Positions 8,659-53,030 of a stretch of 64,000 nucleotides of DNA are shown here, piece after piece. The first letter of the stretch is position 1. Each line of letters begins with the position of its first letter. The DNA is taken from contig MNCI01001925.1 in NCBI GenBank assembly GCA_015680685.1, positions 279,573-343,572 on the forward strand, written 5' to 3'. This DNA is from Gnetum montanum (Eukaryota; Plantae; Gnetophyta). The notes beneath the pieces were generated by a model. It had not been told where the DNA came from. It saw nothing but the letters and a program-made list of their open reading frames with translations, and did not search any database. The position numbers and the translations under genes were made by a program.

Positions 8659-8675
8659 TGTTGCTAGAAGAAGGG
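8659..8675 (+). promoter_or_regulatory. Degenerate tRNA-Asn PBS of element A
   Basis: TGTTGCTAGAAGAAGGG, 6 nt downstream of the LTR. Confidence 0.75.
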
Positions 8676-28600: not shown

Positions 28601-30244
28601 GATGCTCAGAGGTGATCACTGTCACCTCCTGGGACTTCTTTTTTGCTATAGAAATTTGCACGAAAATCCAAAATAGAAAAAAATAAGTTAGACAAGGCAT
28701 AAGTAGTAGAAAAAGCCAGAACAACACTCGAACATTTAGTAATTTACTATTTAGCTTACCAGGTCTAAACGGCGATAGGAATGGAGGAACATCAACTAAG
28801 ACATATTCAATAGTGATTGGTTTAAAGGGTGCCCATCCCTCATCCAACCAACCAGACTTGCATCTATCATAGATCTTGGAATACCAGGTTGGATAGGTCT
28901 TGTACTCAATCATGCATTGGCCTATCACACCTACGTGCATATTCTCAGCAGAAGAAAACTACTACAGCATCATCTGTGCTATGGCCAACACATCCATATC
29001 ACTATGAAGCCCATCACCATTGATGAAAAACATGGTAAAAAAAACACACTGTTAACATTTTCCTAGCGTAGCAAACATTGCAGTGTAGCAGAACATGTCT
29101 ACAAAACTCACCCACTGGCATAGTAAACGGTTCCTGGTGGGTTCTGGAAGAACATTCCCATGTGATGTGTAATAAATAAAGTATTATATGGATGGTAGAA
29201 ATTATACTTGGGCATCACCCAGATCCATGCCAAACACCTCACATTTCTTGGACATTGACTGGATCCTTCTCCTTGCTCGCTGCTAATTGCTTCGTCCGTC
29301 AAAAATCTTAGAATACCCCAATTTTCCCTAGACAATAGGGTTTCTGTTATGATGGTCACTACCTCCTCTACCAAGTGTAACCAAATGATCACATTGAAGT
29401 GCTGGAGGAGAAATTGTAGAAAATCTTGCACTCCTTCCCAGAACTAGACCACCTGCTACCCCGCACATGCATGGGGTGGAGGGACATTGGCCATTGGTTC
29501 GCTTATGCACCAGAAGACCCCTACGATTTCTAGGAAAATCAAGATTAGCTTAGTGCCACCTTGAACAATACAATATCAAATGTTAACAACATGTTCAAGT
29601 GTAGTTCAAATATAGCATAGTAGAATTGGTATTTAGTAGATAGCGTAGCATTATTCTCTTCATGCATATAGCGTAGGAAAAAAATATGAAGGGAATAGCG
29701 TAATAGAATTAGCTTAGCGTAGCAACAAGAAAAAATTAAAGACAAATCTTTAAACAAAGAAAAATTTAATGCATTGTATTCATTTAACAGATATGCCTGA
29801 CAAAGCGATTAGCATCACACCATGACAGAACACATGTTACGCTATCACATCACACACATGGCTAAACCCTCCTAAGGGTTGTACGCTACATGCATGCCAA
29901 GTGGTTAAAATCGTCCAAGCCCCTATGGCAATGGTAGCCACAATGATGGCGGTCTAGGCGCCATTGCATGCAACCTTAGCATAGCGTCCATACATTTGTC
30001 GTGGCCAAATTGGCAACAACGACGGTGTATAAGACAAAATAACGACAACACAATGATAGAGAAAGATAGATTTCAAAAAAAATATAAGAATAAAAACAAA
30101 AAGAATAAAAGCAATAACAAAGGCATTGGAAAAATAGAGGGAGCATAGTAGCCTACTGGGTCAACAGTGTCTCCTCTCACACCACAACGTGTACTTATGA
30201 CACACGTCCTAGGATTTCCTTTACTTTGTTGACCTTGACGAGTG
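25687..30244 (-). pseudogene. Antisense multi-exon accessory gene of element B (FCP1/NIF-like, plant-transposon domain, acidic and coiled-coil regions), degenerate; its 5' end lies beyond C at about 48298-48470
   Basis: ORFs 29108-29431 (DFLQFLLQHFNVIIW..NTLFI..FQNPPGTVY), 28566-28940, 28240-28494 (DLFNLPTDGLPV), 26982-27476 and 25903-26106 match the C exons in order; GT donors at equivalent positions. Confidence 0.85.
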
Positions 30245-30249: not shown

Positions 30250-31511
30250 TGTACCGCCTGAAATCGTCAGTCTTCGGCTGGAAGGGAAAATAGAGGCCAT
30301 GGGATCGCGGGACTGGTACAGAAGACCCTGCCTTCGCCTGAGGGTGAGCTGGAATGTAACAGAGGTAGAGTACCTTGGGTGGTCCGCACGTGGATCAGAC
30401 AAGGATTTCCCCACGCGTACGCAAAACGCTAATACGCTGGGTTATGCATAAACGACGTGCAGGAGTAAATAGCAAAAACAGCGTGAAACGTAAACGGATG
30501 CAAACGAAGCGTGAGCGTAAACAGACGTAAACGATGTGTGGGCCAAATTGAAGTAAAATTGTAAAAGAACTTGTAGCAAATGTAAATAGTATAGAGTCAA
30601 AGTATAGTGCACCGGTCTAACGCAGTCGTGGGGGGACACAAGGCAGACGAAAAGCCCCGGCGTATGCAGGAATGACTCGGCCTGTTCCCAAGGCAGGCAG
30701 AGCGTAGAAACTGTGCATGCAGCATACAGGGCGTAAGAGGGTTTCAGCTCTTGTGCACATTGTAAATGTTCTCTGGTGTGCTCTGGGATTTTTCCCACCG
30801 TCTTGTGAAAGTGGGAAATGGGGGTTTTTATACAGGTTGTTATGCTAAACTCGGGTTGGACGACACGTGGCGCATTGACCAGGTGCATACACTTTACAAA
30901 TATACAAAATGTTACAACTACTGGGCGTATACGTTGCATCAAGTCGACGTATACATTGAAAATGCTGGGCGTAAACTAGGTGGACATGCTGAGCGCTGGG
31001 CGTATATGCCCACACGCTGGGCGTATACGCTAGTAAATGTTGGGCGTACATGCCAGGCGTATACGCTGATGAATGTTGGCCGTACATGCCAGGCATATAC
31101 GCTAAAGGATGCTGGGCGTACACGCCGGGCGTATACGCTGAAGGATGCTGGGCGTACATGCCGGGCGCATATGCCGAAGGATGTCCACTTGCTTCAATCC
31201 TTGCTCTTCGGTGTTATCTTCATGCTGTCATTGGAGATCTTATCGTCGAGTGTGTGCATCTGCAGTACCTGGGCGTGTACGCCGGAGAGCTGGGCATATA
31301 CGCTGGAGTTCCAGCCGTATACGCTAGACGCATATGCTGGAATGTTGGGCGTATACGCTGTATGCTAGGCGTATACGCTGGAGTGTATACACTGGCACCA
31401 TGTACTTAGCAAAAACTAAGTGTTGCGATCATGCATCCAGCGTCGTTCATGAGTTCCAGGGTCCTGTTTGGTGTCGGACAAGTACTAAGTTCCGAATTTT
31501 GTGGTGTTTCA
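30250..31511 (-). repeat. 3' LTR of element C (1262 bp)
   Basis: TGTACCGCC...GGTGTTTCA; direct repeat of 47039-48292. Confidence 0.96.
30920..31400. repeat. Array within the C LTR (U3): units of about 33 bp with the palindrome GCGTATACGC
   Basis: Repeating GCTGGGCGTACACGCCGGGCGTATACGCTGAAGGAT; also at 47710-48180. Confidence 0.9.
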
Positions 31512-31526
31512 TTGGCACCTCTTTGT
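31512..31526 (-). promoter_or_regulatory. Polypurine tract of element C
   Basis: Minus strand ACAAAGAGGTGCCAA directly before the 3' LTR; B has ACAAAGAGGGGCCAA at the same position. Confidence 0.8.
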
Positions 31527-32519
31527 TGACGCTTGGAGGAATCGATCCGAGAAGCGTCGACAAAGAAGTGCAAAACACCACCAGCAACTCGATAGAGACG
31601 TTGTCTACTGCCACTTGGATGAGATGTCATCGCACCGTGTTCAGTAGTACAGAGGATTGGGGAAAGGAAAATTTTGTATCTGGGAGGTCAGGGAGATTGC
31701 GGGGATTGATGATCGGTCCAGGAGATTAATCAGGGGAAAGGGGATGCTCTGATGTGAGGTATGCCGATCCTTGTCAATAGCCATTGTTTAGCAGACTCGG
31801 AGTTTAGACATGCGAGGTGTGTCTTTTGGTGGAACAAGGCTCTTGGTTAGTGTGCAAGAGAACTTGTTGATGGGACCAAAGCTACAGGAGGATGTGTTGC
31901 ATTCTTTGGGAGAACAGGGCCCATGTTTAATGTTCAGGGGAACCTGTTGGCAGGGAGCCAAAGCCATGTGACTTGATGCTTTTTGACCATTGTGGGCACA
32001 AGTACTTGGTTTTGAGACGACTGCCTTCCCGCCTGGGGCTTACATAGGAAGTGCCCGGGGTCTCTCTCTCTTTTTTTTTACATAAACTTTGCTCTGTTTG
32101 TGTACTCGTGCACAGGTGTTGTACTGTGTGGCGTATTGCAGCGTGCAACAGTGTGCTCAATGTTTTGAATGTACTGGGTGCGTCAAGGGTGTAGTTGAGT
32201 GGAAATTGGGGAATGAATGGGGATGTACTAGTGAATGGTTTGATTTAGTCCTGCTAGGTATGTTGCGAACATTGTCTTATCTTGCTGCTTACGACGGAGT
32301 GCATCTTTGTACGGAACTTCCAGGTGTCATCCTGCAAACATAACGCCAAGGAGATAAGAAAACTATGAGCGAATAGATGAGCTTAGACTTACATGATGGC
32401 TGATGGCACAGAGGTGCTGAAGGACGGCCGACACTATGTGTAGATGATAGCAATATTGATGATGAGCGATGCAGTGAAGCTGATGGACGATCATGATGGT
32501 GGATTGATGTGACGGATGT

Positions 32520-32855
32520 GGATTTGCCAATTTATAGTCTTGGTAAACTATTATGGGTTAGTTTTATGTCATAACCCATTGGACATTGCCTGTTTAGTGT
32601 CATGGCGGATAGTACATTGCCATTTTTTAGTCTTAGCGAACTATGAAGAGGCAAGCTAGCTTATAGTCTTGGCAGACCCTGATGGTTGTGACGGTGGAAA
32701 TTTACTGTCATGCTAGACGGGTGGTAGTTTATTATCATTGCGGACACTGTGGTATTATTTTTAAGTCATAATCCAGGACTGTTCTATGGTATCAGTTTAT
32801 CGTCATGATTCCAGGACAAGCTGTGGTATCAGTTTATAGTCGTGATTCCAGGACT
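32520..32855 (-). repeat. Degenerate array of about 30-35 bp units downstream of the integrase in C (core ATGACNATAAACT)
   Basis: Repeated AGTTTAT.GTC(A/G)TG on the plus strand. Confidence 0.7.
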
Positions 32856-32876
32856 TACACGTACCTGAGCTTATGT

Positions 32877-35800
32877 TTAGATGTAGAATAGTTTCAGATA
32901 CAAATGATTTATCGAATTAGCGAGCTCGTTCCCTTCTATGTCAGCTAACTTGAATGCACCATTGTCGAATGCCTTGATGACCACGTAAGGCCCTTCCCAG
33001 TTGGCTGAGAATTTGTCCGGGTGTTCTCGAACAGCTTTGAGTACGAGATCGCCTTCGTGGATTGGGCATTTGTTAATGTCATGCCGATGTCGCTGTCGTT
33101 GTTTCCTTTGGTACCATTTGATCTGATCGAGTGCGCGTGCACGTTCCTCTTCCACCAAGTCAAGGTCAATGAGACGTAGTTCATTGTTTTGCCCGTCGTC
33201 GAGGAGTCCGGAGAGTGTGATCCTTAACGACAGTACCTGTAATTCCAAAGGTAAAACAACTTATGAACCGTAAACGAGACTGTACGGAGTTTTACCTGTT
33301 GACATTCGGTGAGTAGTGCGGTGAGCCCATAATGCATATAGTAATTGCTCGTGCCATTTCCTTTTGCTCTGGGTGAGCATTTTCTTGAGTATTGTAATGA
33401 TCGTTTTATTGGTTGCTTCTGCTTGCCCATTGCTTTGAGGATAGTAAGGAGAGGAAAACGAGTGTTTGATCCCCAGACTATCGCAAAAGGTTTTTGTGTC
33501 GGCACTGCTGAATTGCGGCCCATTGTCAGTGATAATTGTCAAAGGGGTGCCAAAGCGGGTTATAATATTTTCTAGGATAAAGTTGCACATGTGTTTAGAA
33601 GTCGTTTTTCGAAGGGGAGCTGCTTCTACCCACTTCGTGAAATATTCAGTAGCGGTTATGATGAAACTGTGCCCTGCAGAAGATGAGGGTGTTATCGAGC
33701 CGATAAGGTCCAATCCCCACTTCTGAAAAGGCCATGTTATTTGTGCTGTGTGCAATTCGTTTGGTGGTACATGTGTTAAGTTACTATGTTTTTGACAAAT
33801 ATTACATGTTTTGACTTTGGAGAAGCAGTCGTATTCCATGTGTGGTCAATAATAGCCTAAGCATCTTATTTTCGTGGCCATGGCTTTTGGTGCTATGTGT
33901 CCTCCACATAGTCCCTCATGTACTTGATCAACTATGGTTTGGGCATCGGTATTACTTACGCATGTTAGTAATATACCTTCGTAGGATCTACGACACAGTG
34001 TGTCCCCTATGAGGGTGTATTGCCTCGATCGTTTCCGCACTACATCTTTCTGTGCATTTGTTAGATGTCGTGGTGTTTCACTGCGCAGGAGGTACTCTTT
34101 TATGTCATCGTACCATTCTATTGCGTGTATTGTGCTAACAGATGCGATCGGCAACGTATCGGAAGTTATTGGTTCATCACAGTTGATTACGGAGCTTGGC
34201 AAGGCATAGAACATGTCGGGCGATATATTTAACGCTAGTGTGGCTAACGCGTCTGCGATAGTGTTATCATTTTGAGAGACGTGTTGCACATCAATGTGTT
34301 TGAATTGTTTCATTAAATGTTTCGCCAAGTCACAGTATGGTTGTAAATGTTGAACTTTGCATGTGTAAATGTCTGTAACTTGGTTTACAACCAATTGTGA
34401 ATCCCCTCTGACTATGAGCCGTGTGATATCTAAAGCCAGTGCTGTCATGAGACCTCTAAAGAGACCTTCATACTCTACTATGTTATTAGTATAGTGAAAA
34501 CTGAAGAGATAGGCAAAGGGTCAAATCTCCCTGGAGGGATAAGTGATGACAACAGCCGCACTTCCTCCTCGAGAGGTGGATGCTCCATCAAAGTTTGAAA
34601 TAACATCGTAGTCATCAGGCATTGTGTCTATTGTGCTTATACTTTCATTTGGGAATTCAGGCTCTATGGTTGCTTGGTCATGCGTTGGTGATGCAGCCAT
34701 TTGATTTACTATGGCTTGACCTTTAACTAATGATTTTGTTACGTAGTACAGGTCAAACTCAGCTATCATGGCTTTCCACCAGGCTATTCGACTCGTTTCG
34801 TAAATGTTTCCTATTATGGCTCCCAGTACGTTGTCCTTGCAAATTACGTAGACTTGATTGCGGAAGAGGTAGTGTCGCCATTTTCTTAGAGAAAAGACCA
34901 AAGCTAAACATGACCTCTCCACGTCGTTATATTTCTTTTCATGGGCAACTAAGGCATGGCTCAAGTAGTATACAGGGACTTCAGTTCCGTCATCTTGTTT
35001 CTGATAGAGCATAGATGCGATGGACAATTCTGAAGTGGTAAGGTAGATGTAAAACGGTTTGTTGTTTTGGGGCGGGTAGACCGTAGGCAGTCGGGCAAGT
35101 GCTGTTTTGATATTTTTGAAAGCTTCCTGGCACTGCGAAGTCCATTCGAAATGGACATTTTTACGCAATAGGTGGTTCATAGGTTTTAGTTTGTTTGTTA
35201 ATTTTTCTACGAATCTCCTGATGAACTGCAATTTCTGTAAGGTTGCTTGGTGGTTTTAGGTTTGTTATGGCCTTGACCTTATCGGGGTTCACTCATATCC
35301 CTACTTCTGAAGCTATGAATCCAAGCATTTTGCCTGTTTTGACATCGAAGATGCATTTTTTTGGGTTAAGTCTTAGTTCATATTTTAAACAACGTTTTAA
35401 AACTAAGTCGAGGTCTTGTACGTGTTGTTCGATCATTTTTGATTTAACCACGATGTCATCTACATAATCGTTGAGTGATCGTAGCATGTAATCACTAAAG
35501 ATAAACATCATGGCTCTTTGATATGTGGCCCCTACGTTCTTGAGACCGAAGGGCATCATAGTGTAACAAAAAGTTCCCCATGGGGTCATGAAGGTGGTTC
35601 GAAGTTGATGTTCCAAATTGATGCGTATTTGGTTGTATCCTGAGAAACCATCCATAAAAGATAACAAGGCATGTCCTATAGTCGAGTCAACAAGTTGATC
35701 GATGCTAGGCAGGGGAAAGTCATCTTTTATGGTTGCTACATTCAAATCTCGGAAGTCGATGCATAAGTGAATGCTTTTGTTTTTCTTCGGGACGATGACC

Positions 35801-36338
35801 ATGTTGGATACCCCTTCGGCGTAATCAACAGCCCGAATGAAACCAGCTTGATAAAGCTTGGTGATCTCATTGCGGACTGCCAATGCCACCTCGGGTCGAA
35901 CTTTTCGTGCTTTCTGTCTTATCGGTCTCAGTTTGGGATCCAAAATAATGTTGTGTTGGACAATTCTAGGATCTAGCCCAAGAATGTCCGTATAAGACCA
36001 AGCGAATGCTTTCATGTTTTCCCTAAGTACGTTTTGGATGTCTTGTGCCAAGTGTGGTTGTAGTAGTGTACTTAATTTTAATATTTTTATTTCCCCATTA
36101 GGCATGGTAATGGGTGTTTCAGCTAACGGATCTTCAGTGATGTTTTCGGCCTCTATGTCAAGAAATTTCGTCATGCCTCCATAGTCATCTGTTGTTTGCT
36201 GTGTTGAGGCTATGACCGCATTGTCCATTAGTGGACTTAAATTGATGAAGTTTATGTCAATGTCCCGTGTAATGATGCCGTGTGGTCTGTCAATGGTTAA
36301 CGGTGCGGCTAACTGCAGGCAGTCCATTGAGCTTGCTC
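32877..36338 (-). pseudogene. pol: pol of element C: RT - RNase H - additional (archaeal-type) RNase H - integrase; few stops and frameshifts
   Basis: RT: CIDFRDLN, MDGFSGYNQI, MPFGLKN, YVDD. RH: PVYYLS..EKKY..E. aRH: FDGAS, NNIVEYEG, GDSQLVVNQV, ADALA. INT: HEGLCGGH..CNIC, WGLDLIG, TDNGPQF, NGQAEATNK, WEGPY. No chromodomain. Confidence 0.97.
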
Positions 36339-36479
36339 CTGCCAATAAACCGAGAGTTGCATGAGCAAAGGGATTGTTCTGTGTCTTTTGACAATTTTAG
36401 ACTATGCGTACGTGTATAACAGTGGATTATCGTCACACCTGGATGTATGGCAGTTTTATGCCTTACCGGGCAGTGTGCG

Positions 36480-36560
36480 GCAGTTTAAGGCCATACCAGG
36501 CCAATGGGCGGATGGGGAAATGGCAGTTTAAGGCCGTACCGGGCCAATGGCTATTTAAAC
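36480..36560 (+). promoter_or_regulatory. Putative promoter of the antisense gene in C: two GGCAGTTTAAGGCC..GGCCAATGG repeats and TATTTAAA (36552-36559)
   Basis: CCAAT x2 and a TATA-like box about 430 bp upstream of the predicted ATG; A and B have CTATAAATA at the equivalent position. Confidence 0.5.
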
Positions 36561-36987
36561 CAGCGTAAATGTGTAAAAAGGGGTCTACGGAGGAACTAGG
36601 ATGTAATAATCCTTGTTTTTAATGAATTTTTTGTTAAATTTTATCATTTTGGACAGATTTTGGTGAAAAATAGGAAAAAAGGCAAAAAAGGCGAAAACGA
36701 GGCAATGGCGGCGTAAGCGGCGGTGGCGTCAACGTCAGCATCATCAGGCGCTATTTGTTTTCTATTTTGAAAACGACGGCGTAGAGCGTAACCCGAGCGA
36801 GCGTGAGCGTAAGCGTACAATTGCTAAAGCGTAGGTGTAAATCACCATACCCTAGCGTAAGAGTAAACTGGAACCTAAGCGTAGATGCCGAAGGTTGAAC
36901 CCAGCGTAGATGTCGAGGCTTAAAATTCTTAACGCCAGCATAAAGTTACTCAACGTGAACGTAGATCGCTAGCGTAGACACTCTGAA

Positions 36988-39900
36988 ATGGGCAAGGGCA
37001 AGGAAGTGGAGGACCAGGGGCGGAAGGGTCCCGATCTAACCTTCGCTGAGGAGACGGAGGCCATGTTGCAGGGTTTTCCCAGGCCAAAGATTCCTGTGTG
37101 GCCTGCGACATCCTACAGGTAGGCTTTGATCCCTGCCTCTATTATTGTTTGTGTGCTTCATTGTATTCGTAGTGTAAATGATCTCGGCGTATACGCCGAG
37201 CGCAGGGATTTTTCATCATGAGGGTTTTCGGCGTGCACGCCAGCATAACTGTGCAGCGTAAACGGTGTTCAATCCTGGCGTAAACATTTTTTTGCATTGT
37301 TTTAGCATAAAAGTTCGTCAGCATGTTTTTCATCGGCATAAGTTCTATTTCTTGCGACGGCGTATACGCTGAGGGTTTGTTCGGCGTATACGCCATACGC
37401 GTACAGTTGTCTTCGGCATACCGCTTTATCTTTCTGGCATAAACTGTTTACGTCGAACTTGAAATTGAGCGTATACGCCGAGGGTTTGCTCAGTGTATAC
37501 ACCGTATGCGTGAAGGGGTTGGGGTGTCAGTGTAAAACAGATCGCCGTTAGCATAGACGCTGAGTTAGCTGGCATGTACGCTGAGCTAAATTTCGTTCTT
37601 TACGCTAAGTATTAGTTGGCGTATACATTCTGCAGACAACGTATACGCTGGATTGAATGCTTTTTTTGTGCTAAGTGTAGATCATTGTATACGCTCTGTA
37701 TATATCGTATATGTTAATTCTGAATCGCTCTAAGTGCTAAGTTTGTTCAGCGTACACCGTATGCGGCGTATACGCTGAGCGTGAATCATGGGCGTAAATC
37801 GTGGGCGTATACACTATTGTATAGCATATACGCTGGGCGTAAGTTATGTTTTTCGCACTGTAGAGTTGACATATATGCTCTATGTACAGCGTATACGCTG
37901 GGCGTAAACAGTTAGTTAAATTTTTGATTTTTTTTTGCCGATTTATGATGCAAACTTTCGTTTTGTGACATTGCGATTGGTTACAGGGACAACAAACACT
38001 TCCTTATCATGGTTGAACTCGTCGGGATGCTAGCATGGGCTGGCCGCGTTGAGGAACACGATCTTCCCCCAGCTTTATTTGTGGATGACAAGGGGGTCTG
38101 GTTTAGGGAAGGTGCTGGCGAATTTCTGGCTTTCTTGTTAACCAATTTTGAAGTGGCTATGTGGTCATATTTTGATGAAGTGACCGCACGGAGTGTGGTC
38201 GATGCAATACTGCCCGAGGCCACCGAAGGTGTCATGGTCTTCATGGAAGACATTGATGAGGGGCCTTTTGTTGATGAGGATGGCACTACCCGCAGGCCCA
38301 AGTCAACCCACCTGTTAACGCGTGTGTGGGCATTGCTGCCACCGGGGTTGGATTATGTCAATAATACATTGTTTATAGCTGCCCATGCCCATACCTTATT
38401 CCAGAATCCTCCTGGCACAGTATACCGAATAGCCAAGTGGGACAATTTACATTTATTGCTTTGCTTATTTTCATTTAATGTTGGTTTCTTGTTTTAACGC
38501 ACACTTGTTTGTAGACCGAAGACCAACCCAAACGGGACCCTCATTGAGGATGAAGGGATAGCCCTCGCTTGCGCCACTCTTGAGGCCCTTATGACGGCCC
38601 CCACTCTTCATGGGGCCATACTAGCTCAGACGAAGAGTTCAATGGTCCGTTTGCATAATCAGTTTTCCAGGGTCTTCGCGATGTGCAAGGGTCATGGGTG
38701 GCTTCAGGAAGATTGGACAGATCAGAGGCCAGTCTTTCCTCATAACTTTAGCAACACTTCCAAATCTGCCACTAGCGGTGGGTGATAACATTTCTTAGAT
38801 GCGTTAGTGGGTTTTTTCGACTGTTTGGGGTTATGCTGATATGGTCATCTTGACTTGTTTTAACAATTGACGCACCCTCCGGTGAGGATCCTGTGACGAC
38901 AGGACGAACTGAGATAACTTTGTCAATGAACTTCGGGGGGTGGAGAAGGCATAGAAGTGGCTGCGTAAGAAAGCCTCGCCACTCCTAACTCGTTGCCTGG
39001 ACGATGCCGGCCTCCTGGAGCTTTTTATGATGCCTAGCCCTGATGTCTCAATCGGGGAGATGATAGGGATCGTGGACTCTTTTAATGAGTCTGTTTCTCA
39101 GTACAGTGTCTGGATTAAGGGTGTTAAGGTGGTGTTTCATCTGTCTCCTGTGTTCTTTTCTAATTTGTTTGGTATGCCAGTAGATGGCCTACCTGTAGTA
39201 TTGGACAGGTCTCATAAAGAGCTCCAAACAATCCACGATCTGGAATCTTGGCTTGGCGTGATGAAAAACACCAAGGGATTCTTGATGCAGGGGAAAGCAA
39301 AGGTTGTTGAGGTGAACGAATTGCATCCCCTGTTTCGAGCACGGGTGTTTCCCAAAACTCTTTCTCAGGTGCAGAGTTTTGGGGTTGAGGCGGTACGCAT
39401 CATGCAGAGTATCTTAGAAACTGGCATGTGCTATAACTGGGCTCAGTTTTTGTTGGCGGGCATGCATAAGGAGATAGTGCAGTTGTGCTCGAATATCGAA
39501 GTACAATCACACTTCACCTTTGCCTTCTTCGCTGGTTATCTCCACCGTTTTACCGAGTTCCTTGTGGTGTGTGTGAACAACAAGTTTGTCCTACGGGATC
39601 GGGGTCAACTATCCCGCCTGTGGGTCAAACATTTGTTTGTGACAATGAGATCGCAGGATGCCCCTGAAGGTATCGATGAGTCTGTGTCTATTACTATAGG
39701 GGGATCATCTGGCGGTTCCATCCATACGCGGGATAGTCTAGGGGTGGAGCTAGTGGATGTACCTTTAACCGCCAGATGGGTAGAGCAGGTTATTAAAGAG
39801 ACCATTGGGAAAGCCAAGTCGAAATTGAAAAGACTTGAATGCACCATGGAGGAAGTTGCCGAGATAAACCAGCCACGCGTGAAGTGGATACGCTTCAAGA

Positions 39901-41569
39901 TACCTGGTAAGCGAAGCTCATATGCTTGTTATTGCATCGTTTTCATTCATTTATAACCCCTACAATTGCTTACGTGTCGTTATTGTTTTCTATTTGATGA
40001 AGTGAGGAAGCAGGCCGTAGAAACCATCAGAGAGGAGGAGGATACGCGTACAGAGAAAAACAATGAGGAGGAAAGCCCAGAGAAGAGCCAAGGCGGGGGA
40101 ACGGAGCTATTAACAGAGAGGACTACTGACCCTGAACCTTTAGATGACCCGGACGCTATCAACCAAATGTTCAGTAGCTTCCTCAAGGGTGACTTGGATT
40201 TGGGCGATCCCCCAGAAGGTGACAAGGATCAAGGTATGTCTTCACTTTTAGTTGGTTTTTATTATATTAATTGTGGCTCCTACTTTTTTTATTTTTGTGT
40301 TTGTGGCTTAGATGAAGGCAGCGGTACCAGAACGGTACGGTTGGACGTTCCCATGAAGACGGTTCCTCCTGAGGGGACCGCTGAGGTTAGCTCTTCCTGT
40401 ACTCGTCAGCTGCTTATTTGGTCAGAGATGCCAAATAAGTCGGATTTTGTGGATGGGATCGCGGAAGAAGTCGTTGAACATCTCCAGGAAGTCCATCCTG
40501 ATATAGGTATGAATCATTTAAAGATTAGGAGCTTCGTGTCTTACGTGTACCGTTTTAATGTTCGTGTTCTCTGCGTGGGTAGGCGCTAAACTAAGATGGG
40601 ATCCCTCTGAGGGCATCAGTATGGAAAGCCTAACTACACTCTCCCCAGAAGTAGAACAGGTGCCAAGGCCTGTTTATGAAGGGGTTGCAGAAAGCCTTGC
40701 ACACAATGCCAAGTCGTTGTGGACTTGTAGGCGTTCTGTTGAACAGTTGTGGCTACAAGTACAGGCAAAGGAAAAGGAAGTCTCTGCCGTAACAGAGGAG
40801 CGTGACGATTTAAAGGCTCGATACGAGTTTGCCGCTGCTAGACTAAGTGGAGATCGTTCTTGGCGAACCTCGGAGATTACGTACACCAGGTATTGGAACC
40901 TTCTGAACCGTCATGCGTCACTGACTCGGAGAATAGCGGAATGCAAAGCTCAAATTGATCTCCTGAACCTTAAGTGTCAAGATTGGAAGGCTTTCGCTTC
41001 CAAGGTTCGCAAGTGGGGTCAGGATGAGAAGAACCATAAACATCAGTACAAGAAGTCGCTGAAAGAGGTATCTATTGAAAAGCGGCAACTGGAGATGTTT
41101 GTGGAGGGTTTGGGTTTGCGTTCCGCCTTCGATACCTTTGCCCAAAACACAATTGTGGAAATGGAATCGCCTAAGAGGGTCATCACAACTGCTTCTGGGG
41201 AGGTGTCGGTAGGTGAATTTCCTCTGAAACGCCCTACCTGGTCAGCGGTCGACAAAGGCAAGGCTTTGGCAAACGTTGACTTAGGCCTGGACGGAACAGA
41301 TTGGGCCAGCGTTCCAGAGGAAGAAATCCTTCGTCGGCTGGAGTTTGGCTTAGGGGGATCCCCTATGGTAAACGTTTTGTCTTTATGAAGTTAATTTATT
41401 GGATAATGTTTAAAATGTTTAGCATTTGCTTATTTTTGTGTTGGTTGTTTGTTTTTGGTGTTCTTAGCATGAGGGTGACGATGATACTCACGAGGCTGGC
41501 CCCAGTGGAGCAGGGGCCCCTGACACTGGTGGTTCTAAAGGAGATGATCCTCCTATCACGGACACTTAG
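36988..41569 (+). CDS. Antisense 8-exon accessory gene of element C (about 1065 aa): FCP1/NIF-like pseudo-phosphatase, PMD/Transposase_32-like domain, coiled coil and acidic tail; this copy is lightly damaged
   Basis: Predicted exons: 36988-37118, 37987-38436, 38515-38777, 38867-39906, 40003-40233, 40312-40506, 40583-41367, 41468-41569. Six of seven introns are GT..AG and phase-compatible. The intron 3 acceptor reads TAACAA (inferred G>A). There is a 1-nt frameshift at the G run 38935-38940 and a TAG at 38952. Confidence 0.8.
37180..37910. repeat. Dispersed GCGTA / GCGTATACGC motif array in predicted intron 1 of the C antisense gene
   Basis: Same motif as the C LTR array and the 5' leader (46320-46990). 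Confidence 0.8.
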
Positions 41570-41685
41570 TATTTTTGTAGTTTTTTGTGTTTTTTTTGGC
41601 GGTTTTTTTGCTAATTTAAATTGATACGGGTATTGTAACTAGAAAATGTTGAAGAAAATAGGCACTATTTGTACAACATTGCATG

Positions 41686-41691
41686 AATAAA
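41686..41691 (+). terminator. Putative polyadenylation signal of the antisense gene in C
   Basis: AATAAA about 115 nt after the stop, followed by T/GT-rich sequence. Confidence 0.5.
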
Positions 41692-41826
41692 TATTTTTTT
41701 GTTGGTTTTTAAGTTGTTTGCACACATGACATGATACTAAAGTATTTTTGGGTTCGCTTTTCTGTTTAACTGCAATGCACAGAAGTAATGATAAATAATA
41801 TGTAAACAGGAGAACAAGTTTTGCAC

Positions 41827-42140
41827 TAGTTTAAGGCCATTTCGGGCCCCAATGCATAGTTTAAGGCCGTTTCGGGCCCCAGTACGGACGAGTAATATGT
41901 CATGGCGGATATTTCGTAGTTGACTGACCATTTCTGATCATGGGTTGTTTTATGTCATCGCGGACATGATAGTTTAACGTCTTTCTGGACAAGGAGTGTT
42001 GCAATTTTTTATTTTTTTTTTGCTGTTTATTATTATTTCTTTGTGTTTTTGGGTTTTATCGTAGTTTAGCGTCATTTCAGACAAGTTATAGTTTAACGTC
42101 GTTTCGGACTGTTCGTAGTTTAATGTCGTTCCGGACGTTG
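41827..42140 (-). repeat. Short repeat arrays downstream of PR in C (GGGCCCGAAA(C/T)GGCCTTAAACTA x2 and CCGGAACGACGTTAAACTA-like units)
   Basis: Direct inspection; homologous to the A and B arrays. Confidence 0.75.
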
Positions 42141-42147
42141 TAATATT

Positions 42148-45100
42148 TCATTTTAGTTGTTTCTTAATTTTCTTCATTTTTTTATCAGGGATTGTATTGA
42201 CCGGTATGATTTTGTATTCTCTATCTCCTTCGCTGATCACGTTGAATGGCAATTCAGTCCAGGAGATGTCTATTAGAATGTTTTCGGTATCGATACTTTT
42301 AGGTGCTTCGATGTCGGTTGTTGTTTTTGTGTTGGTTTTTTCATGAGGTGACGCGTGTACAGTGTTAAACACAGGTATTTCGGCTTCAGGCTCTTGTCCC
42401 GTATTCGAAGGTTCACTAACCACCAGTTGCGTTTTGTTTGAGTCCTTTTGACCAGGCTTATCGAGTTCAACCTTGGAGCCTCGATCCTCGTCTGTGTGCG
42501 ATGCAATGAGGGGAGAGGCTGCTTCCCCATGTATGATGATTTCACCACCCTCGTAGGGTAGGTGAATCTCCTGATGTATAGGGGAGGACACAGCTCTCAG
42601 TTAGGCCAATCAGGGTCTTCCTAATATTAGGTTGAATCTTGGCATTTCATCGACGACGAGGAAGTTAGCAGATGTGGGGAACTGGTCTCCTACTACGAAG
42701 TCTAGGGTTATTGTGCCTTTGACTAATACGCGCGACCCGCTAAAGGACTTTAAGCATGTCGTTGTGGTGGGTTTGATCAAGTTGGTGAGCCCCAATTGTT
42801 CAATGATAGGATACGGTATGACGTTGGTGGCTGCCCCATAATCTACATGTACCCTATGTATTTTGAATTGGTTTACATGTATAGTTATGAACATAGGGAT
42901 TGTTCTTGTCTCGCCTGTCTTCTTATCTACTTTGATGTTCTCATCATGGAAGCTCAAGGGCTTAGGAACGGCACCGTGAGATGGATACATTACGGCATGA
43001 ATGGCCGGTTCGCTCGGAGGCAAGTTCTTGCTAACTGGGATTGACGTGAGCATGCGTACTAGAGCTTCTCGATGAGTCTGGGATGTTAGTACCAAGTCAT
43101 ACAAGCTTAACGAGGTGTTTTTCTGTTTTAGGGCTTGAGTAACTTGTGTCAGGGCTATTGCGAAATCTCTACTATCAGGGACGTTTTTATTAGCAGTGAC
43201 TGGGTCCATTGGACCCAATAGTTTTATTTCGTGTTTTGGTGGTTTGTCATTATTGTTAAGGCCTACCATTTTATACGGTTCTTGTGTTTCAGATGACTCA
43301 CTGTTGCTATCCGTGTTCGGTCGACCATTGGATGATGACATGGGGATAGAGTTAAGTGGAGTTGGTTTGGGTGGCCCCATGGCTAGCCATTGGCGTTCCT
43401 TCTCCATGTGCTCATGTGTAAGCCTGTCTACTAGGCGTTCTCGTGTGTTACGCGGAGGTGGAATTGGCCTCGGAGCCTGGGATTGCCCTGGGACCTTTAC
43501 TACATATGGAGCCGAACGGGGTTGCGGGTGGACGGTGGGATATGATTGGGTAGGAATCTGTCCAGGTATCCTGATGACATACAGGATTGGTCTTGGTGGA
43601 GGTTGGACCTCTGTTGTTGCAACGGCGGGTGGTACTTGGACTACAAAAGGGGTAGGCCGAGCATGAGGGGTTGGTGTATCCGCGGGATTGACCGGAGGGA
43701 TGCGCACCACATATGGTTTTTGACGCATTGTGATGTTGGGGGTGGGCACGGTCGGGGGCACTCAAACTACGTATGGCCAGTGCGGGGCGTGGGATGGTTG
43801 AGATGTAGGTGCGGATGCAGCAGGAGGAATTTGAACCATGAATGGCTTTCCAAGTGTTTCTTGCTTATTTTCATGGTAGATGGTGTTGATGTGGGGTGTG
43901 TCGGAATCGTCATCACAATAGATTGCGTCAATTACGTACGCTGCCTCTTTAGTATTCAGGGGGTCTTTGTACACCCCATGGTTTGATTTTGTGGTTGGAC
44001 GGGGTTAGCCCCGTCAAAAGTGATTTTGCCATCATCAATCATCCGCTGGATATCCTGTTTCAAGGTGAAGCAGTAATCCGTTCCGTGCCCATTGCATTGA
44101 TGGTAGTCACAGAAGTGATCCATCCTAAACCATTGGGCATGGGCGGCTCATCTGGCGTTGCTAGGCTTAGGTTCTGTATGAGTTGGCAGAATCGTTCGTG
44201 CCTTTGGATGGCCGCAGGGGATAATTGCTTATGTTGCATGAACCCAACCTTTAAGAGTTGGTCAAAGAGCTGGGACGGTTTCATTGGTAAAGGCGTGTAC
44301 TGAGAAGGTTCCTTCCTCTCGAAATTACGCTCACAGTTCGTCGGGTTTTGTGATGATGACTCTGTGGTTGTTGTGGGAGCGGGTTGATAGTAGTTAGTGG
44401 TGGTTTTGGGCGGTCTTTGTTGATGTGTGGTGTTCATTTGTTGGGTTCCCGCTAATGCTGCTATAGTTGTCTTGGCCTTCTCTTTATCCTTTTTAGTATG
44501 TTGATTTTTGAAGGCCAAGTATGCCGGGTCATGGCTATTTTGAGCCGCTTCCTCTATGTTTCTGATCTATAAAAATGCCTGATTCACATCACGTGCATTG
44601 AGGTAATAAAGTTTGGACTTAAAGAAATCATTGACAGCCACCTTCAGAATTGTAAGCCAATAGGTTAGAGAGATTGGTTCGTGCAGCTCGTTGACAGCCG
44701 CACTCCATCTCTGAATAAACTTCTGTGCAAGTTCAAGCGGTGCTTGCTTGATCTGCATGAGGTTGTCCAGTGTGGCCTCAGGTTTCAAGTTGTACTTGAA
44801 CCGGGTCACAAACTGGCGTAAAAGATCATCCAAAGAGAAAATAGAGCTCCTAGGCAGGGCCCGGTACCAGTCGAGTGCTCTCCCTGCGAGAGACATGGAA
44901 AATACTCAGAGGATGGAGTGGGGACAAGCCTGGAGCAGCACACATTCTAGCCAGAATGTTATAAGGTGCGCGTTGGGATCGGTCTCCCCGTTGTACTTTG
45001 TTAATGTGGGCAAGGGGACACCTTTAGGTAAGGTTAGAGGTGGGACCGAAGAGCTGATAGGGTCATTGTTGTAGAAATCCACTACCTTTAACTCTCCCTC

Positions 45101-46261
45101 AGTGGCCGTTTGGAGCCATTTTACCTCTTCAGTAAGATCTTGCATTATCTTTTTGGCGTCCACCTAGTCTTGGGCGCTTGGTGATGCGGCGGCTTGGGGT
45201 TGTGGTATACTGTACAAGCTAGATTGTTGCGTGTTAGGGTGAAGGGCTGACAGCTGTGCGAGTGCTTGTGGAAAGGTTGCGGCAGGCAGCGCTACAGATG
45301 GCACGTGGTAGGGAAAGGGTTGTTGTTGGTGTTGCTGTAGCTGGGGTTGTGCTTAGGGAACATTGATTAGTGGAACCGCGTGGGGTGGTGTATGGGGATG
45401 GGGAACTTGATGCGACGGTGCTCCCCTTGCTGGCCATTACCCCGCCACATTATGGGCGGGGACTCCCTATTGGGTCACGGCTGTTTGGGGAACTGTATGT
45501 TCTTGGACGTGTGGTATGAAGTGGGTGGATGTGGATGCCAAAATCACATGTGGCACCCCTATCACCCTTGGTGGGAGTGTTGCCCCTAGGTTATCGAAAG
45601 GTGGCGGCACTTGTGAGGATGGGCCCGTAGCGACAGTAGGGACAAACGCGAGTGGGAAGGTGTTGGGTTGGTGATCGCTCAGAAGAGGGACGTGGACTAG
45701 TGCTGCTGTTTCCGGTGGTGGCTATTGAGCCTGGACGAATCTAAGGTGTTGCAAGGGCATGAGTTCCCCTGTGCCAGGATGGAAGATGGGGTTGACCTAT
45801 GCTTGAGGGCTTAAGATATGGTACGACTCTCCTTGCTCGGATTGAGCGGTGAATCCATCCTCATCCTCTGGTTGGGGCTCTAGTGCGGGCTAGTCCAACT
45901 AATTGTTTCTTTGAAGGAGGAGTTGCGTGATGAGTTCCGAATATTGTTTAGGAACGGGAATTACGTTGTACGGAGAAGGGATGAACTCTCGTCCCCCCCT
46001 GTAATATAGCTCAAACTGCCTCTTCACCTCTAGTTCAGCTTGATCAACAGCCAGGTCAGCTTGTATTTTAATACAGATAAGGTTGTACTAGTCCTTGGTA
46101 ATGATGTTAGAGGCTGGGTCCCTCCCTTGCAGCCTTACGGATGGGCGGGGACCCGCTGTGGGTTGCATTCCTGGGTGTTGTGGTATAGGCTGTTGGACGG
46201 CAGTGAGGTCCATGGTGGCGGCGGTGTGAGCGGGGACAGCAGTGTTGTTAACAGGGTTCAT
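42148..46261 (-). pseudogene. gag: gag-protease of element C (interrupted by several stops and frameshifts)
   Basis: ATG at 46261; N-terminal RPSVRLQGRDP domain; KYNGETDPNAHL; RALDWYRALP; knuckle CDYHQCNGHGTDYC at about 44075-44120; protease VHVDYGAATNVIP and FNLILGRP; ends at a stop at 42148. Confidence 0.93.
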
Positions 46262-47017
46262 GATGCTATGTCACGGATAGGAGTAAGTCTGGAAAGGCGG
46301 AGTTGCTCTGTAATGTGGCGTGTAGTGTATACGCTTCAAAGGACAGCATATGGTATCAGCGTATACAACGTGTGCAGTGTATACAGCGTATATGGGCAGC
46401 GTAGACGCTGGAAAGCATATAAGGCGCAGGATGGATCAGCGTAAAGTGAGACGGCGTAAAATAAGAGCGTAAGATAGGGAGTAGCGTACAGCGTAAAAGA
46501 GGTGATCAACATAATGCAAGAATGTAATAAGTTGCAGCGTAAAGGACCACTTAGCGTAAAATTGGTGTTTAGCGTAAAATAGACGAACGTGACAAACTCA
46601 GCGTAAACACCAGCTCAGTGTAAAACAGGCCAGAGCATAAAACAGAAGATAGCGCAAAACAGGCGAGCGTACAATGGGTTGCAGCGTAAACAATTTGCTG
46701 CGTAAAATTCACAGCGTAAACAGTTCATAGCATGAAACAGGCTTAGCGTAAAGGCCGACTCCGATGTAAAGACAGGCACGTAAAACAGGTTGCAGCATTA
46801 ACAGTAGAGCTTAAAATAGATGAACGTAAAACAAAGATGTAGGAGAGCAGGTTTTTAAGAACGTAAACGCTGTGCAGCATAAACACTGGACAATTGCGGG
46901 TTGGGTTTTCGAACCGGACAGCATAAACGCTGGGAAAGTTGGGGCAGCATACCATTAGCAGCATAGACGCTTAACAGCGTATACACTGGGAGTTGCGGGT
47001 AAGGGTTTTAAGGAGGT

Positions 47018-47033
47018 CCTCCTTCTAGCGCCA
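47018..47033 (-). promoter_or_regulatory. Intact tRNA-Asn primer binding site of element C
   Basis: TGGCGCTAGAAGGAGG, complementary to the 3' end (..CCUCCUUCUAGCG-CCA) of plant cytosolic tRNA-Asn(GUU) as recalled; 5 nt from the LTR. Confidence 0.9.
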
Positions 47034-47038
47034 ATTTT

Positions 47039-48292
47039 TGTACCGCCTGAAATCGTCGGTCTCCAGCTGGAAGGGAAAATAGAGGCTGTGGGATCGTGGG
47101 ACGGGTACAGAAGACCCTACCTTCGCCTGAGGGCGAGCTGGAATGCAACGGAGGCAGAGTACCTTGGGTGGTCCACACGCGGATCAAACAAGGATTTCCT
47201 TGCGCGTACGCAAAACGCTAATATGCTGGGTTATGTGTAAACGACATGCAGGCGTAAACAGCAAAAACAGCGTGAAACGTAAATGGATGCAAACGAAGCA
47301 TGTGCATAAACAGACGTAAACAATGCGTGGGCCAAATTGACGTAAAAATATAAAATAACTTACAACAAATGTAAACAGTACAGAGTCAAAGTACAGTGCA
47401 CCAGTCTAATGCAGTCGTGTGGGGACACAAGGCAGACGAAAAGCCCTAGCGTATGCAGGAATGACTCGGCCGGTTCGCATGGCAGGCAGAGCATAGAGAT
47501 TGTGCGTGCAGCGTACAGGGCATAAGAGGATTTCAGCTCTTGTGCACAACGTAAATGTTCTTTGGTCTGCTCTGGGATTTTTCCCACCATCTTGTGAAAG
47601 TGGGAAATGGGGGTTTTGATACAGGTTGTTACGCTAGACTCGGGTTGGACAACACGTGGCACGTTAATCGAGTTCATACACTTTACAAATATACAAAATG
47701 TTACAACTACTGGGTGTATACGCTAGGTGTATATACCACATCAAGTCGGCGTATACGCTGAAAATGCTGGGCATGAACTAGGTGGAGATGCTAAGCGCTG
47801 GGCGTATACGCTGGTGAATGTTGGGCGTACACGCCGGGCATATACGCTGATGAATGTTGGGCGTACACACCGGGCGTATACGCTGAAGGATGCTGGGCGT
47901 ACACGTCGGGCATATACGCTGAAGGATGTTGGGCGTACATGTCGGGCGCATACACCGAAGGATGTCCACTTGCTTCAATCCTTGCTCTTCGGTGTTATCT
48001 CGATGCTGTCATTAGAGATCTTGTCGTCGAGCGTGTGCATCTAGAGTACCTGGGCGTGTACGCTGGAGAGCCGGGAGTATACGCTGGAGTGTTAGGTGTA
48101 TACGCTGGACGCATACGCTGGAATGCTAGGCGTATACGCTGTATGCTGGGCGTATACGCTAGAGTGTATATGCTGGCACCATGTACTTAGCAAAAACTAA
48201 GTGTTGCGATCATGCAACTGGCGTCGTTCATGAGTTCCAGGGTCCTATTTGGTGTCAGACAAGTACTAAGCTCTGAATTTTGTGGTGTTTCA
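47039..48292 (-). repeat. 5' LTR of element C (1254 bp)
   Basis: Adjacent to the PBS; direct repeat of 30250-31511. Confidence 0.96.
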
Positions 48293-48456
48293 CCAAGTGT
48301 TTGCATTCTTTCCTGGGAGCCATCGTTTTGCTCACCAACTCTTTCTTCGTTGCTACGTTGGATCACATTGTTCTTAATTGGCACAATCACTCTATGATAT
48401 GAATGTCGGCTCTACACTATTATAGTGAAAATGATGCGTTTACCAGGGGTAAACCC

Positions 48457-48644: not shown

Positions 48645-48880
48645 GCGGTCTGCAAAGATCTTAAACTAGCAATCATAACACATAGTTTCAATCTAGTTAG
48701 TGGTTTGTAAAGGCCTTAAACTAAGCTACCTTTCACTCTTCTTAGAATAACCTATCAGCGGTCCACAATGACCTTAAACTAGCAATTTCGACCTTTTACT
48801 CGTTAGTGGTCCGCAAAGACCTTAAACTAGTAGCTTTGAACCTCTTGCATTTTAGTGGTTCAAAAAGACCTTAAACTAAA
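48645..48880 (+). repeat. Array of GGTCCGCAAAGACCTTAAACTAG units upstream of RT in B
   Basis: About 5 spaced copies; equivalent array in A at 60355-60585. Confidence 0.8.
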
Positions 48881-52646: not shown

Positions 52647-52669
52647 TGCATGAAGCAGATTAGCACATG

Positions 52670-53030
52670 TACACTACGACGTAAAACTAGCAAAGGTGAG
52701 CACATGTTCGCTACAACATAAAATTGGCAAAGCACGTCTGCTATGACGTAAAATTAGCAAAGCTCATCTACCATGATGTAAAATTGGCACAGACAGTTTG
52801 CTATGACTATAAATTGGTATAGATAGTCCACTATGACTATAAACTAGCATAGAACATTCGCTATGACGTTATACTAGTGCTACGGTTTGCTGGGACCTTA
52901 AACTAGCTCATCCACTATCCACTATGATGATAAACTAGCATAATTGTCTACTAGGACATTAAACTAGCACATCATGGTCTACTAAGACCTTAAACTAGCA
53001 CGTCATGCTCTACTAGGACCTTAAAATGGG
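52670..53030 (+). repeat. Tandem array (about 28-32 bp, CTATGACGTAAAACTAGCA) downstream of the integrase in B
   Basis: Direct inspection, roughly a dozen units. Confidence 0.85.

Follow-up and report, generated by a model that had tools for sequence, protein, structure and literature searches.

The locus analyzed here, a 64-kb stretch of the Gnetum montanum genome (the window, from whose first letter all coordinates are counted), raises the question of whether a phosphatase-like domain and the conserved exons downstream of it belong to a single gene of a transposable element and what the product of such a gene may do. An earlier note had described a pseudo-phosphatase fused to a plant mobile-type domain (PMD), a coiled coil, and an acidic tail, and had proposed an anti-silencing or chromatin factor encoded by a transposable element. 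The underlying observation proved real and larger than described: exons 4–8 are part of a predicted accessory gene of eight exons (copy C; 36988–41569, plus strand; about 1,065 codons), with donor and acceptor phases consistent at all seven introns. The earlier description began at position 38867, which is the start of exon 4. The exons of copy C are as follows:

36988–37118, plus strand: exon 1, from the ATG to a GT donor; its phase 2 fits the exon 2 acceptor; not seen in RNA and the least certain exon.
37987–38436, plus strand: exon 2, NIF/FCP1-type HAD domain with the catalytic aspartates gone (Pfam, atlas, own profile, hhalign, and motif mapping).
38515–38777, plus strand: exon 3, likely the C-terminal part of the HAD-like domain and a linker; conserved in copies A and B, with matching phases 2 and 1.
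38867–39906, plus strand: exon 4, conserved domain of ~240 aa and a linker; 5' end broken in copy C; a PMD/DUF1985-like family is a lead.
40003–40233, plus strand: exon 5, acidic low-complexity linker (30% Asp + Glu); longer in A and B, with the phase unchanged.
40312–40506, plus strand: exon 6, 3' half conserved in A and B; donor confirmed by an RNA joint.
40583–41367, plus strand: exon 7, two segments of probable coiled coil, followed by motifs conserved at the C-terminus; RNA joints confirm its two ends; weak Pfam coiled-coil matches.
41468–41569, plus strand: exon 8, acidic tail (27% Asp + Glu), then the stop; acceptor confirmed by an RNA joint.

The peptides quoted previously were located in this model: the exon 4 frame from 38955 contains all three, and exon 7 contains both heptad-like stretches. 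Exons 5 and 8 are indeed acidic. Copy C is damaged in exon 4, where the acceptor of intron 3 reads AA, a frameshift is located near 38934–38940, and a stop is present at 38952–38954.

The gene is placed antisense between the protease and the RT of a Tat-type Ty3/gypsy LTR retrotransposon (element C). The host type and the position of the gene, inside the LTRs, are identical in all three nested, diverged elements of the window (A, B, and C). The following features were delimited:

30250–31511, minus strand: 3' LTR of element C, 89.6% identical to 47039–48292.
47039–48292, minus strand: 5' LTR of element C, with a sequence resembling a primer-binding site after it; the 5-base target duplication has a single mismatch.
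42148–44905, minus strand: gag and protease of element C (Pfam Retrotrans_gag, Asp_protease_2); a stop closes the frame after a conserved extension.
32877–36327, minus strand: pol of element C (RT, RH, additional RH, integrase); ATG 327 bases before the RT anchor, conserved in three of three elements.
25700–30237, minus strand: copy A of the gene, decayed, from part of exon 1 to exon 8; element C splits exon 1, the remainder of which is near 48297–48330.
20440–21340, minus strand: duplicate of the exon 7–8 region of A, within a 5.38-kb internal tandem duplication.
56153–60040, minus strand: copy B of the gene, decayed, from exon 1 into the 5' part of exon 7; exon 7 holds the inserted element A.
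13300–14018, minus strand: copy B, exon 7 (3' part) and exon 8.

All gene copies within the window are decayed (pseudogenes). According to Pfam, element C contains the additional RNase H (RT_RNaseH, then RVT_3, then rve), and the order is unchanged in A and B; the Tat-type RH order is also described for ferns, clubmosses, hornworts, and gymnosperms (PMC10508981). The stop after the protease extension and the separate pol ATG, found in three of three elements, resemble the organization of Ogre from the Tat clade. However, the spacer of Ogre averages 274 bases and is an intron, whereas the protease–RT spacer here is 5.8 kb long and holds an antisense multi-exon gene. An acceptor-like AG is located 11 bases upstream of the pol ATG in C and A. 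No spliced joint removing the spacer was detected among the RNA reads, at low depth; no extra ORF was recognised upstream of gag, the RT showed no match with phage records, and no tRNA was found. Two other origins of the locus were rejected, namely a host gene that transposons happen to flank (its place is within the LTRs, with an identical junction in three elements) and chance ORFs or a shadow of gag-pol (there is no gag-pol overlap, and conservation is at the protein level).

Conservation was assessed by comparing the three copies. The sites and phases of introns 2–6 match across A, B, and C. Protein identity of C with A and B is 31–36%, with synonymous sites saturated (pS 0.73–0.88), and intron 1 of C is unalignable with that of A and B (score 34 vs. 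a mean of 28.6 and a maximum of 42 in shuffles). Exon 4 is conserved far beyond chance (tblastn 8e-37 vs. A and 4e-42 vs. B), with an overall identity of 30–31% among its three copies, 69 invariant columns out of 328, and dN of 0.23 at dS of 0.77 between A and B. The motif L-F-x-x-P-x-D-G-L-P-(V/I), pointed out previously, is kept in A and B. Raw identity between A and B is 74–77% in exons and 72–78% in introns, an uninformative comparison, as this equality is explained by decay after insertion. The gap between exons 3 and 4 comprises 89–114 T-rich bases, is bounded by GT..AG in A and B, and has phase 1 on either side in all three copies.

Fifteen spliced RNA reads of relatives, on the strand of the gene, fall at two predicted GT..AG introns (6 and 7); among the RNA reads, no joint was found for introns 1–5, including the exon 3–4 junction, where depth is 0–3. 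The best reading is that the gene has been kept by selection and is spliced at introns 6 and 7, the rest of its structure being predicted. Of the fusion claimed earlier, one gene model within a Tat-type element stands, while its exon 3–4 junction is unseen in RNA. The data support a model in which one gene joins two conserved domains, the first of them a dead HAD/NIF domain, with acidic linkers and a probable coiled coil.

The similarity of exon 2 to Pfam NIF (PF03031) has an E-value of 0.0011 and a score of 19.1 bits, below the 21.8 cut-off. In the atlas search, all 30 of 30 matches were NIF (score 0.92, 192 shared features), and hhalign gave 92.5% against NIF over 41 columns. Our own profile from 12 viral NIF proteins scored 17.4 bits for C and 10.4 bits for A, values reached by none of 300 shuffles. 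The profile match covers the core strand–helix region, and motifs I to IV are collinear with those of the NIF/FCP1-SCP HAD phosphatases. In contrast to these enzymes, none of the three copies has the nucleophile and the acid of motif I, DxDx(T/V), where C reads ELVGM, A reads EIVGV, and B reads EIIGI, or the Mg-binding aspartate pair of motif IV, where the residues are AA, TH, and AC, respectively. The predicted model of exon 2 has a pLDDT of 47; Foldseek placed SCP1/SCP2 at ranks 2–4 and 6 with E-values of only 1.4–1.8, and the VIA comparison (Z 3.8, rmsd 3.7, 105 aligned) was level with unrelated folds. An alignment search revealed no relatives of greater length and did not find the closest host subfamily, and PDB sequences gave chance matches only. 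Judged by sequence comparison, exon 2 encodes a HAD/NIF-derived domain without catalytic aspartates, as the term pseudo-phosphatase had implied. Loss of the aspartates through decay of copy C was rejected, since three lineages share the loss and exon 2 of C is open.

As for exon 4, its earlier likening to PMD, Transposase_28, and Transposase_32 was not confirmed. In Pfam, none of its three copies has a match at E up to 10, including PF10536; as a control, 8 of 8 known PMD fragments match PF10536 at E 1e-34 or better. Transposase_28 (PF04195), Transposase_32 (PF20167), Athila ORF1 (PF03078), and DUF1985 likewise gave no Pfam match with any copy. The full HMMER scan returned 0 matches among 1.84 billion representatives, and no homologue was found in two word-index searches (a single sequence against proteins near its length and the three-copy alignment against longer proteins), in metagenome and viral contigs, or in PDB sequences, among which no PMD relatives are detectable either. 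The AlphaFold model of exon 4, with a pLDDT of 30, is too poor for a fold search.

The hhalign comparison of exon 4 with the PMD profile exceeded 134 of 134 column shuffles (P 0.002, probability 14%) in a comparison set itself chosen by the short shared motif. With this motif masked, the score was 14.1 vs. a background of 14.4, and 39 of 134 block shuffles reached the unmasked score, so that the profile match reflects one short motif. With the PMD HMM, copy C exceeded the shuffles, while A and B did not. The PMD residues E-R-W, T-H-T-F-H, and I-T-L-x-D-V are absent before G-L-P-x-D-G, and the 85-column alignment shares only G-x-P-x-D-G. Filing exon 4 under PF10536 was rejected. In the atlas, a DUF1985 cluster was found at 0.89 (145 features), behind unnamed plant clusters at 0.91; a PMD/DUF1985-like family is a lead for exon 4.

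Exon 7 had been called heptad-like. The corresponding peptides are present, and eight Pfam families, mostly of coiled-coil proteins, match it, all weakly and below cut-off (E 0.01–0.9). Its crude heptad score exceeds 199 of 200 shuffles, but the RT scores equally high, and the score cannot tell coiled coils from amphipathic helices. A coiled coil in exon 7 is probable.

In addition, one 21-base motif, absent from the earlier note and new here, forms same-orientation arrays in non-coding spots of all three elements:

36452–36545, plus strand: array between the pol start and the accessory-gene start of element C, 3 copies.
41828–42137, plus strand: array between the accessory-gene end and the protease end of element C, 5 copies.
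32560–32861, plus strand: motif variants after the integrase of element C, 3 copies with a longer spacer.
12777–13095, minus strand: array located downstream of the gene in B, 9 copies.
19938–20146, 25391–25519, 48702–48877, and 52668–52996: equivalent arrays in A.
60460–60480: single motif copy in B.

The motif was matched 55 times vs. 9.3 expected (0 of 100 shuffles). Its strict form occurs 34 times in nine non-coding segments, which were delimited after the motif was noticed, always on one element strand, and 0 times in 16.7 kb of controls (LTR, intron, exon, gag, pol, and leader). No match was found in Rfam. The motif contains an inverted repeat that covaries: at stem pair 3, 10 of the 28 distinct copies have C:G and 13 have T:A. 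The three copies after the integrase retain complementary arms around the longer spacer. A covarying inverted repeat that tolerates longer spacers is easier to reconcile with an RNA hairpin than with a fixed site for a protein.

Tandem repeats are described as common in Tat non-coding regions (PMC6317226, PMC11963269), and the MAIL2 motif is reported to be palindromic (bioRxiv 2024.09.27.615353). The targets of VANC, an anti-silencing accessory protein of VANDAL transposons, are likewise described as short motifs in one-orientation arrays of non-coding regions, arisen via tandem repeats (PMC5735166). The same-orientation arrays, present in non-coding DNA of each of the three elements, lend circumstantial support to the anti-silencing idea. 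VANC is also predicted to contain a coiled coil, through which VANC21 would oligomerise (PMC13547354), comparable to the probable coiled coil of exon 7, and among named clusters, DUF1985 is the best lead that the atlas gave for exon 4. However, VANDALs are Mutator-like DNA transposons rather than LTR retrotransposons, and the gene studied here has no DUF1985 match in Pfam, includes a pseudo-phosphatase, and is accompanied by a motif whose inverted repeat covaries.

Closer in element type are the antisense ORFs of Retand, Grande, and RIRE2 (Transposase_28, SMC-like), which share with this gene the antisense orientation, a promoter of their own, regions resembling coiled coils, and tandem arrays close by (PMC11963269, PMC7264820). 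These genes, described as ORFs, occupy the stretch from pol to the 3' LTR, whereas the present gene lies between protease and RT, contains a HAD domain and seven predicted introns, and lacks a Transposase_28 match. Among host proteins, PP7L is an inactive phosphatase. In MAIL3 (a PMD-PP7 fusion) and MAIN/MAIL1-PP7L, a phosphatase-family domain is joined to, or works with, a mobile-element-type domain (PMC7156037), but these are encoded by host genes, their phosphatase has the PPP fold, and their mobile domain is a true PF10536 domain, while here a HAD-type domain is placed first, in a retrotransposon, and its partner domain has no assigned family. The parallel is an analogy only.

By analogy with VANC in VANDALs, we tentatively propose, with a probability of about 0.4, that the selected antisense gene encodes a nuclear regulator that binds the motif arrays of its own element and keeps transcription on. 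The exon 4 domain would be the DNA-binding part, the coiled coil would oligomerise the protein on clustered, partly palindromic sites, and the dead phosphatase could provide docking, one example of a partner being a phosphoprotein like the tail of RNA polymerase II. The introns would be retained because the genomic RNA is the opposite strand, from which they are never spliced out before reverse transcription. The protein may also control pol output, given that the arrays flank both the promoter of the gene and the separate start of pol. A more specific version is doubtful, in which an LTR retrotransposon has VANC-like, sequence-specific anti-silencing through a DNA-binding domain of PMD/DUF1985 fold, fused to a coiled coil and to a dead domain captured from a CTD phosphatase. 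The protein would come from an antisense gene that retains its introns within the polyprotein locus, and it would bind palindromic motif arrays surrounding the promoter of this gene and the start of pol. If true, this version would represent an independent invention of the mobile-domain and pseudo-phosphatase module seen in MAIN/MAIL1-PP7L.

The main rival of the regulator bound to motif arrays is a role at the RNA level, which we consider unlikely: a selected, Rev- or CERV-like accessory factor would act on genomic-RNA hairpins formed by the motifs and guide export, packaging, or long-spacer splicing. Changes on both sides of the stem occur in 15 cells vs. 6.2 in shuffles (0 of 500), the arms stay complementary around the longer spacer, the motif has a single orientation, as an RNA signal would, and the 5.8-kb spacer with a separate pol ATG calls for RNA-level control, for which CERV of Cer1 is a precedent (PMC10309623). 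However, the copies are related by tandem amplification, so that the covariation may represent two or three events, the 4-base stem is weak, and neither an RNA-binding domain nor an Rfam match was recognised.

It is similarly improbable that the gene encodes a selected accessory factor of another kind (tethering integration complexes to chromatin or acting as a host-phosphatase decoy), with the arrays independently serving Gag, RT, or a host factor. In favor of this reading, gene and motif are linked by nothing more than co-occurrence in three of three elements. One array follows the integrase, distant from the gene, and coiled-coil and acidic accessory proteins are described as common in Tat/Athila elements (PMC11963269, PMC7264820); nevertheless, two of the three arrays directly flank the gene, and both motif and gene were kept across lineages in which other non-coding DNA is unalignable. 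Finally, a pair of genes (one a NIF remnant, the other coding for a downstream protein) or a passenger that was captured and has no role for the element would agree with the lack of RNA joints at introns 1–5, the pseudogene state of all three copies, and the similar raw identity of exons and introns between A and B, but are very improbable given an exon 3–4 gap that is intron-like in phase and, in A and B, in its GT..AG ends, dN well under dS, and a raw identity equalised by post-insertion decay.

To our knowledge, catalogues of plant Tat elements place the extra ORFs, each a single ORF, either upstream of gag or downstream of pol and nowhere else, and no precedent for the position and intron structure of this gene was found in the literature searched. 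A conserved, spliced, intron-rich gene at the protease–RT junction would escape ORF-based surveys, and this class may be under-counted in large plant genomes, most of which consists of retrotransposons. One element contains both the candidate protein and a motif that is its candidate target, which provides a direct handle on function. If the VANC-like reading is true, retrotransposons would have their own sequence-specific counter-silencing.

The accessory gene that runs antisense between the protease and RT of three nested Ty3/gypsy elements is real, selected and in part confirmed by RNA, and both its position and its structure are unusual. The window is made of plant-type DNA, in which the elements, here termed A, B and C, were delimited by self-comparison and domain scans:

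~6862-14020 and 56150 to the window end: element B, interrupted by A
14021-56143: element A, inserted in B
30250-48292, minus strand: element C, inserted in A

According to the domain scans, all three elements have the order gag, protease, RT, RNase H, second RNase H, integrase, which is the layout of Tat elements with dual RNase H. This order is described as extending beyond angiosperms (PMC10508981; PMC13468544).

In element C, the accessory gene lies on the plus strand in a 5,821-base gap between the protease frame (ending at 42148) and pol (starting at 36327). Its model comprises 8 exons (36988-41569; 3,197 bases), with donor and acceptor phases agreeing at all seven introns; GT..AG holds for six of these, the exception being intron 3, which terminates in AA. 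Exact placement of introns 1 and 7 failed in A and B, and the comparison with C covers introns 2-6. In B, these are GT..AG throughout, 59-144 bases long and phased as in C; A has GT at each of the five donors, with decayed acceptors at introns 2 and 6.

RNA reads with the same species label (4 runs) were placed on 32800-46500 at 85% likeness, nearly all of them coming from relatives (in run X18, for example, 4 of 498 reached 99% or more). GT..AG joints were found exactly at the predicted sites of intron 6 (6 reads, 2 of the 4 runs) and intron 7 (9 reads, 3 of the 4 runs). No joint was detected for introns 1-5 in the four runs over this interval, where depth across exons 2-4 was only 0-3. Splicing is thus demonstrated for two of the seven introns. 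The fusion of the NIF domain to exon 4 is inferred because the intervening intron is short, T-rich, in phase and kept in three lineages. In two runs, first mates over 32800-46500 were mostly minus-strand, over gag and pol and the accessory gene alike; the choice between antisense and genomic RNA hinges on library orientation.

Exon 2 gave an E-value of 0.0011 with Pfam NIF (PF03031), under the cut-off, and an atlas search returned NIF in 30 of 30 matches. In addition, a viral NIF profile was constructed from 12 of 19 viral loci retrieved by a HAD motif, those with a matching frame of 130 residues or more being kept. In both C and A, the central part of exon 2, which lies clear of the motif used for selection, outscored 300/300 shuffles against this profile; hhalign gave a probability of 92.5% for exon 2 and no match for exon 4, used as a control. 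HAD motif I and the aspartate pair of motif IV are replaced in C and A (global alignment) and likewise in B. A structure-based comparison using the exon 2 model yielded no significant fold match. These profile matches and replaced motifs bear out the pseudo-phosphatase proposed in the earlier note, an assignment that is well supported at the sequence level.

The peptides quoted in that note were all found at the locus, the L-F-x-x-P-x-D-G-L-P motif of exon 4 is retained in copies A and B, and exons 5 and 8 are indeed acidic (30% and 27%, respectively). The suggested coiled coil of exon 7 agrees with eight weak Pfam matches, mostly to coiled-coil proteins, but a crude heptad score gave no discrimination.

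The plant mobile domain (PMD) label given to exon 4 is tentative: no Pfam family was found in any of the three copies, membership in PF10536 fails, and the profile score depends on one short motif. Of 66 loci retrieved by a PMD motif, 39 had a matching frame, and the 29 frames with at least 110 residues were aligned; PF10536 was present in 8 of 8 examined. With hhalign, exon 4 was collinear with the N-terminal half of PMD over 85 columns (P 0.002, probability 14%), the controls exon 7 and exon 2 giving P 0.12 and 0.42. The score exceeded 134/134 column shuffles, yet fell to background once the short motif was masked, and 39/134 block shuffles attained it. No homologues of exon 4 were found in any search made, metagenome and viral contigs included, and its AlphaFold model had a pLDDT of 30. 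The atlas ranking, which serves as a lead only, had unnamed plant clusters at the top (0.91), a DUF1985 cluster scoring 0.89. By eye, the order of helix, glycine-turn hairpin, helix and G-x-P presumably resembles that of the PMD/DUF1985/Transposase_32 group. For exon 4, remote homology has about even odds.

Protein identity between C and A or B was 34-35% for exon 4, 31% for exon 2 and 36% for exon 7 (pS 0.73-0.88), against 62-67% for RT and integrase; intron 1 gave no alignment between C and A/B. Between A and B, exon 4 showed dN 0.23 and dS 0.77, and raw exon identity equals raw intron identity because both copies decayed after insertion. Judged from these comparisons, the gene is old, maintained and faster-evolving than pol. 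All three copies are broken at present: the reading frame of C shifts near 38934-38940 and meets a stop at 38952-38954, and exon 4 has 10 stops in A and 7 in B.

The CpG observed/expected ratio is 0.81 in the gene of C (36988-41569) versus 0.32-0.34 in those of A (25700-30200) and B (56150-60000), which is consistent with a younger age or lower methylation of C. LTR identity is 89.6% in C and 85% in A. Nesting is three-deep across 6862-64000, where C interrupts the accessory gene of A in exon 1 and A interrupts that of B in exon 7, the accessory gene being the site struck by both insertions. Element A also contains an internal tandem duplication of 5.38 kb (16220-26972, 89% identical) spanning gag, protease, a motif array and exons 7-8. 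At the left window edge (126-441 and 1770-1937, minus strand), there is a piece of a fourth related element with gag-like DNA and leader.

The gag-protease frame closes at a stop codon, and in each of the three elements the pol ATG lies exactly 327 bases ahead of one shared RT position:

36327: pol ATG of C
49177: pol ATG of A
60732: pol ATG of B

The site 11 bases upstream is an acceptor-like AG in C and A and AA in B. Given the stop, the conserved ATG and the acceptor-like site, pol is therefore likely expressed from an mRNA that is either spliced or initiated internally, and may have its own spliced message. A donor-like site was seen by eye 100-160 bases above the acceptor-like site. The coding extension after the protease ends in the short, conserved motif W-x-x-(L/F)-P-F-x-V in all three elements (42148-42600, 24780-25150 and 12250-12620).

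The flanks of the gene contain a repeated 21-base motif (AGTTTWA, then a 4-base arm, a 6-base spacer and the reverse-complement arm), with 55 matches versus 9.3 expected. Its strict form was counted 34 times, each time on the accessory-gene strand, in nine non-coding segments of C, A and B, which were delimited only once the motif had been spotted; it is absent from ten control segments (16.7 kb in all). Arrays of the motif in one orientation lie at the following positions:

32560-32861, 36452-36545, 41828-42137: arrays of C
19938-20146, 25391-25519, 48702-48877, 52668-52996: arrays of A
12777-13095: array of B
60460-60480: copy in B

The relaxed form falls in the nine segments in 39 of 43 matches, and a de novo count gave the motif six-mers as the top shared six-mers. 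The motif is preserved between C and A/B, unlike other non-coding DNA. Among 28 distinct copies (after exclusion of identical ones and of 5 from the duplicate in A), the third stem pair is C:G in 10 and T:A in 13. Both-sided changes in the inverted repeat fill 15 cells versus 6.2 in shuffles, which is not a probability because the copies share an origin in tandem amplification. Three copies after integrase have complementary arms and a longer spacer.

Among described systems, Ogre has split frames, often with a PMD extra ORF, and a 274-base intron between them, whereas C has the 5,821-base gap with its gene; extra ORFs are assigned solely to the 5' or the 3' side of the polyprotein in that study (PMC6317226). 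Retand-type antisense ORFs are located after pol, in contrast to the position between protease and RT (PMC11963269; PMC7264820). In a screen of plant Gypsy elements, PMD, G-patch and AIR1 were the most frequent non-canonical domains (PMC9289625). PMD clades and capture (PMC5418596) and PMD-PP7 fusions (PMC7156037) have been described, as have the structural likeness of PMD to DUF1985 and the palindromic MAIL2 motif (bioRxiv 2024.09.27.615353). Motif arrays are known for VANC, the anti-silencing proteins of VANDAL transposons (PMC5735166), coiled coils for VANC and Athila (PMC13547354), and CERV of Cer1 is a precedent for an RNA-level factor (PMC10309623). The available portions of PMC13468544 do not mention antisense genes or introns, nor do those of PMC13317346 and bioRxiv 2026.08.24.746577 contain the protease-RT antisense layout. 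In a literature search of mostly freely available main texts, neither a NIF domain within a Gypsy element nor a multi-exon gene placed antisense between protease and RT was found to be described; the novelty of the gene may be affected by the supplementary table of extra-ORF domains in PMC6317226 and by the domain screen in PMC9289625.

The best reading, a testable guess with a probability of roughly 0.4, is that the accessory protein would act in the nucleus on the arrays: exon 4 would bind them, exon 7 would oligomerise the protein, and the dead phosphatase would dock a host phosphoprotein. A factor working at the RNA level on the hairpins is an unlikely reading of the same inverted repeats, and it is also doubtful that the accessory role is unrelated to the arrays. 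That the locus holds two genes, or a passenger, is very improbable. Antisense orientation would allow the introns of the gene to survive reverse transcription, and a spliced or internally started pol message would give room for the 5.8-kb insert.
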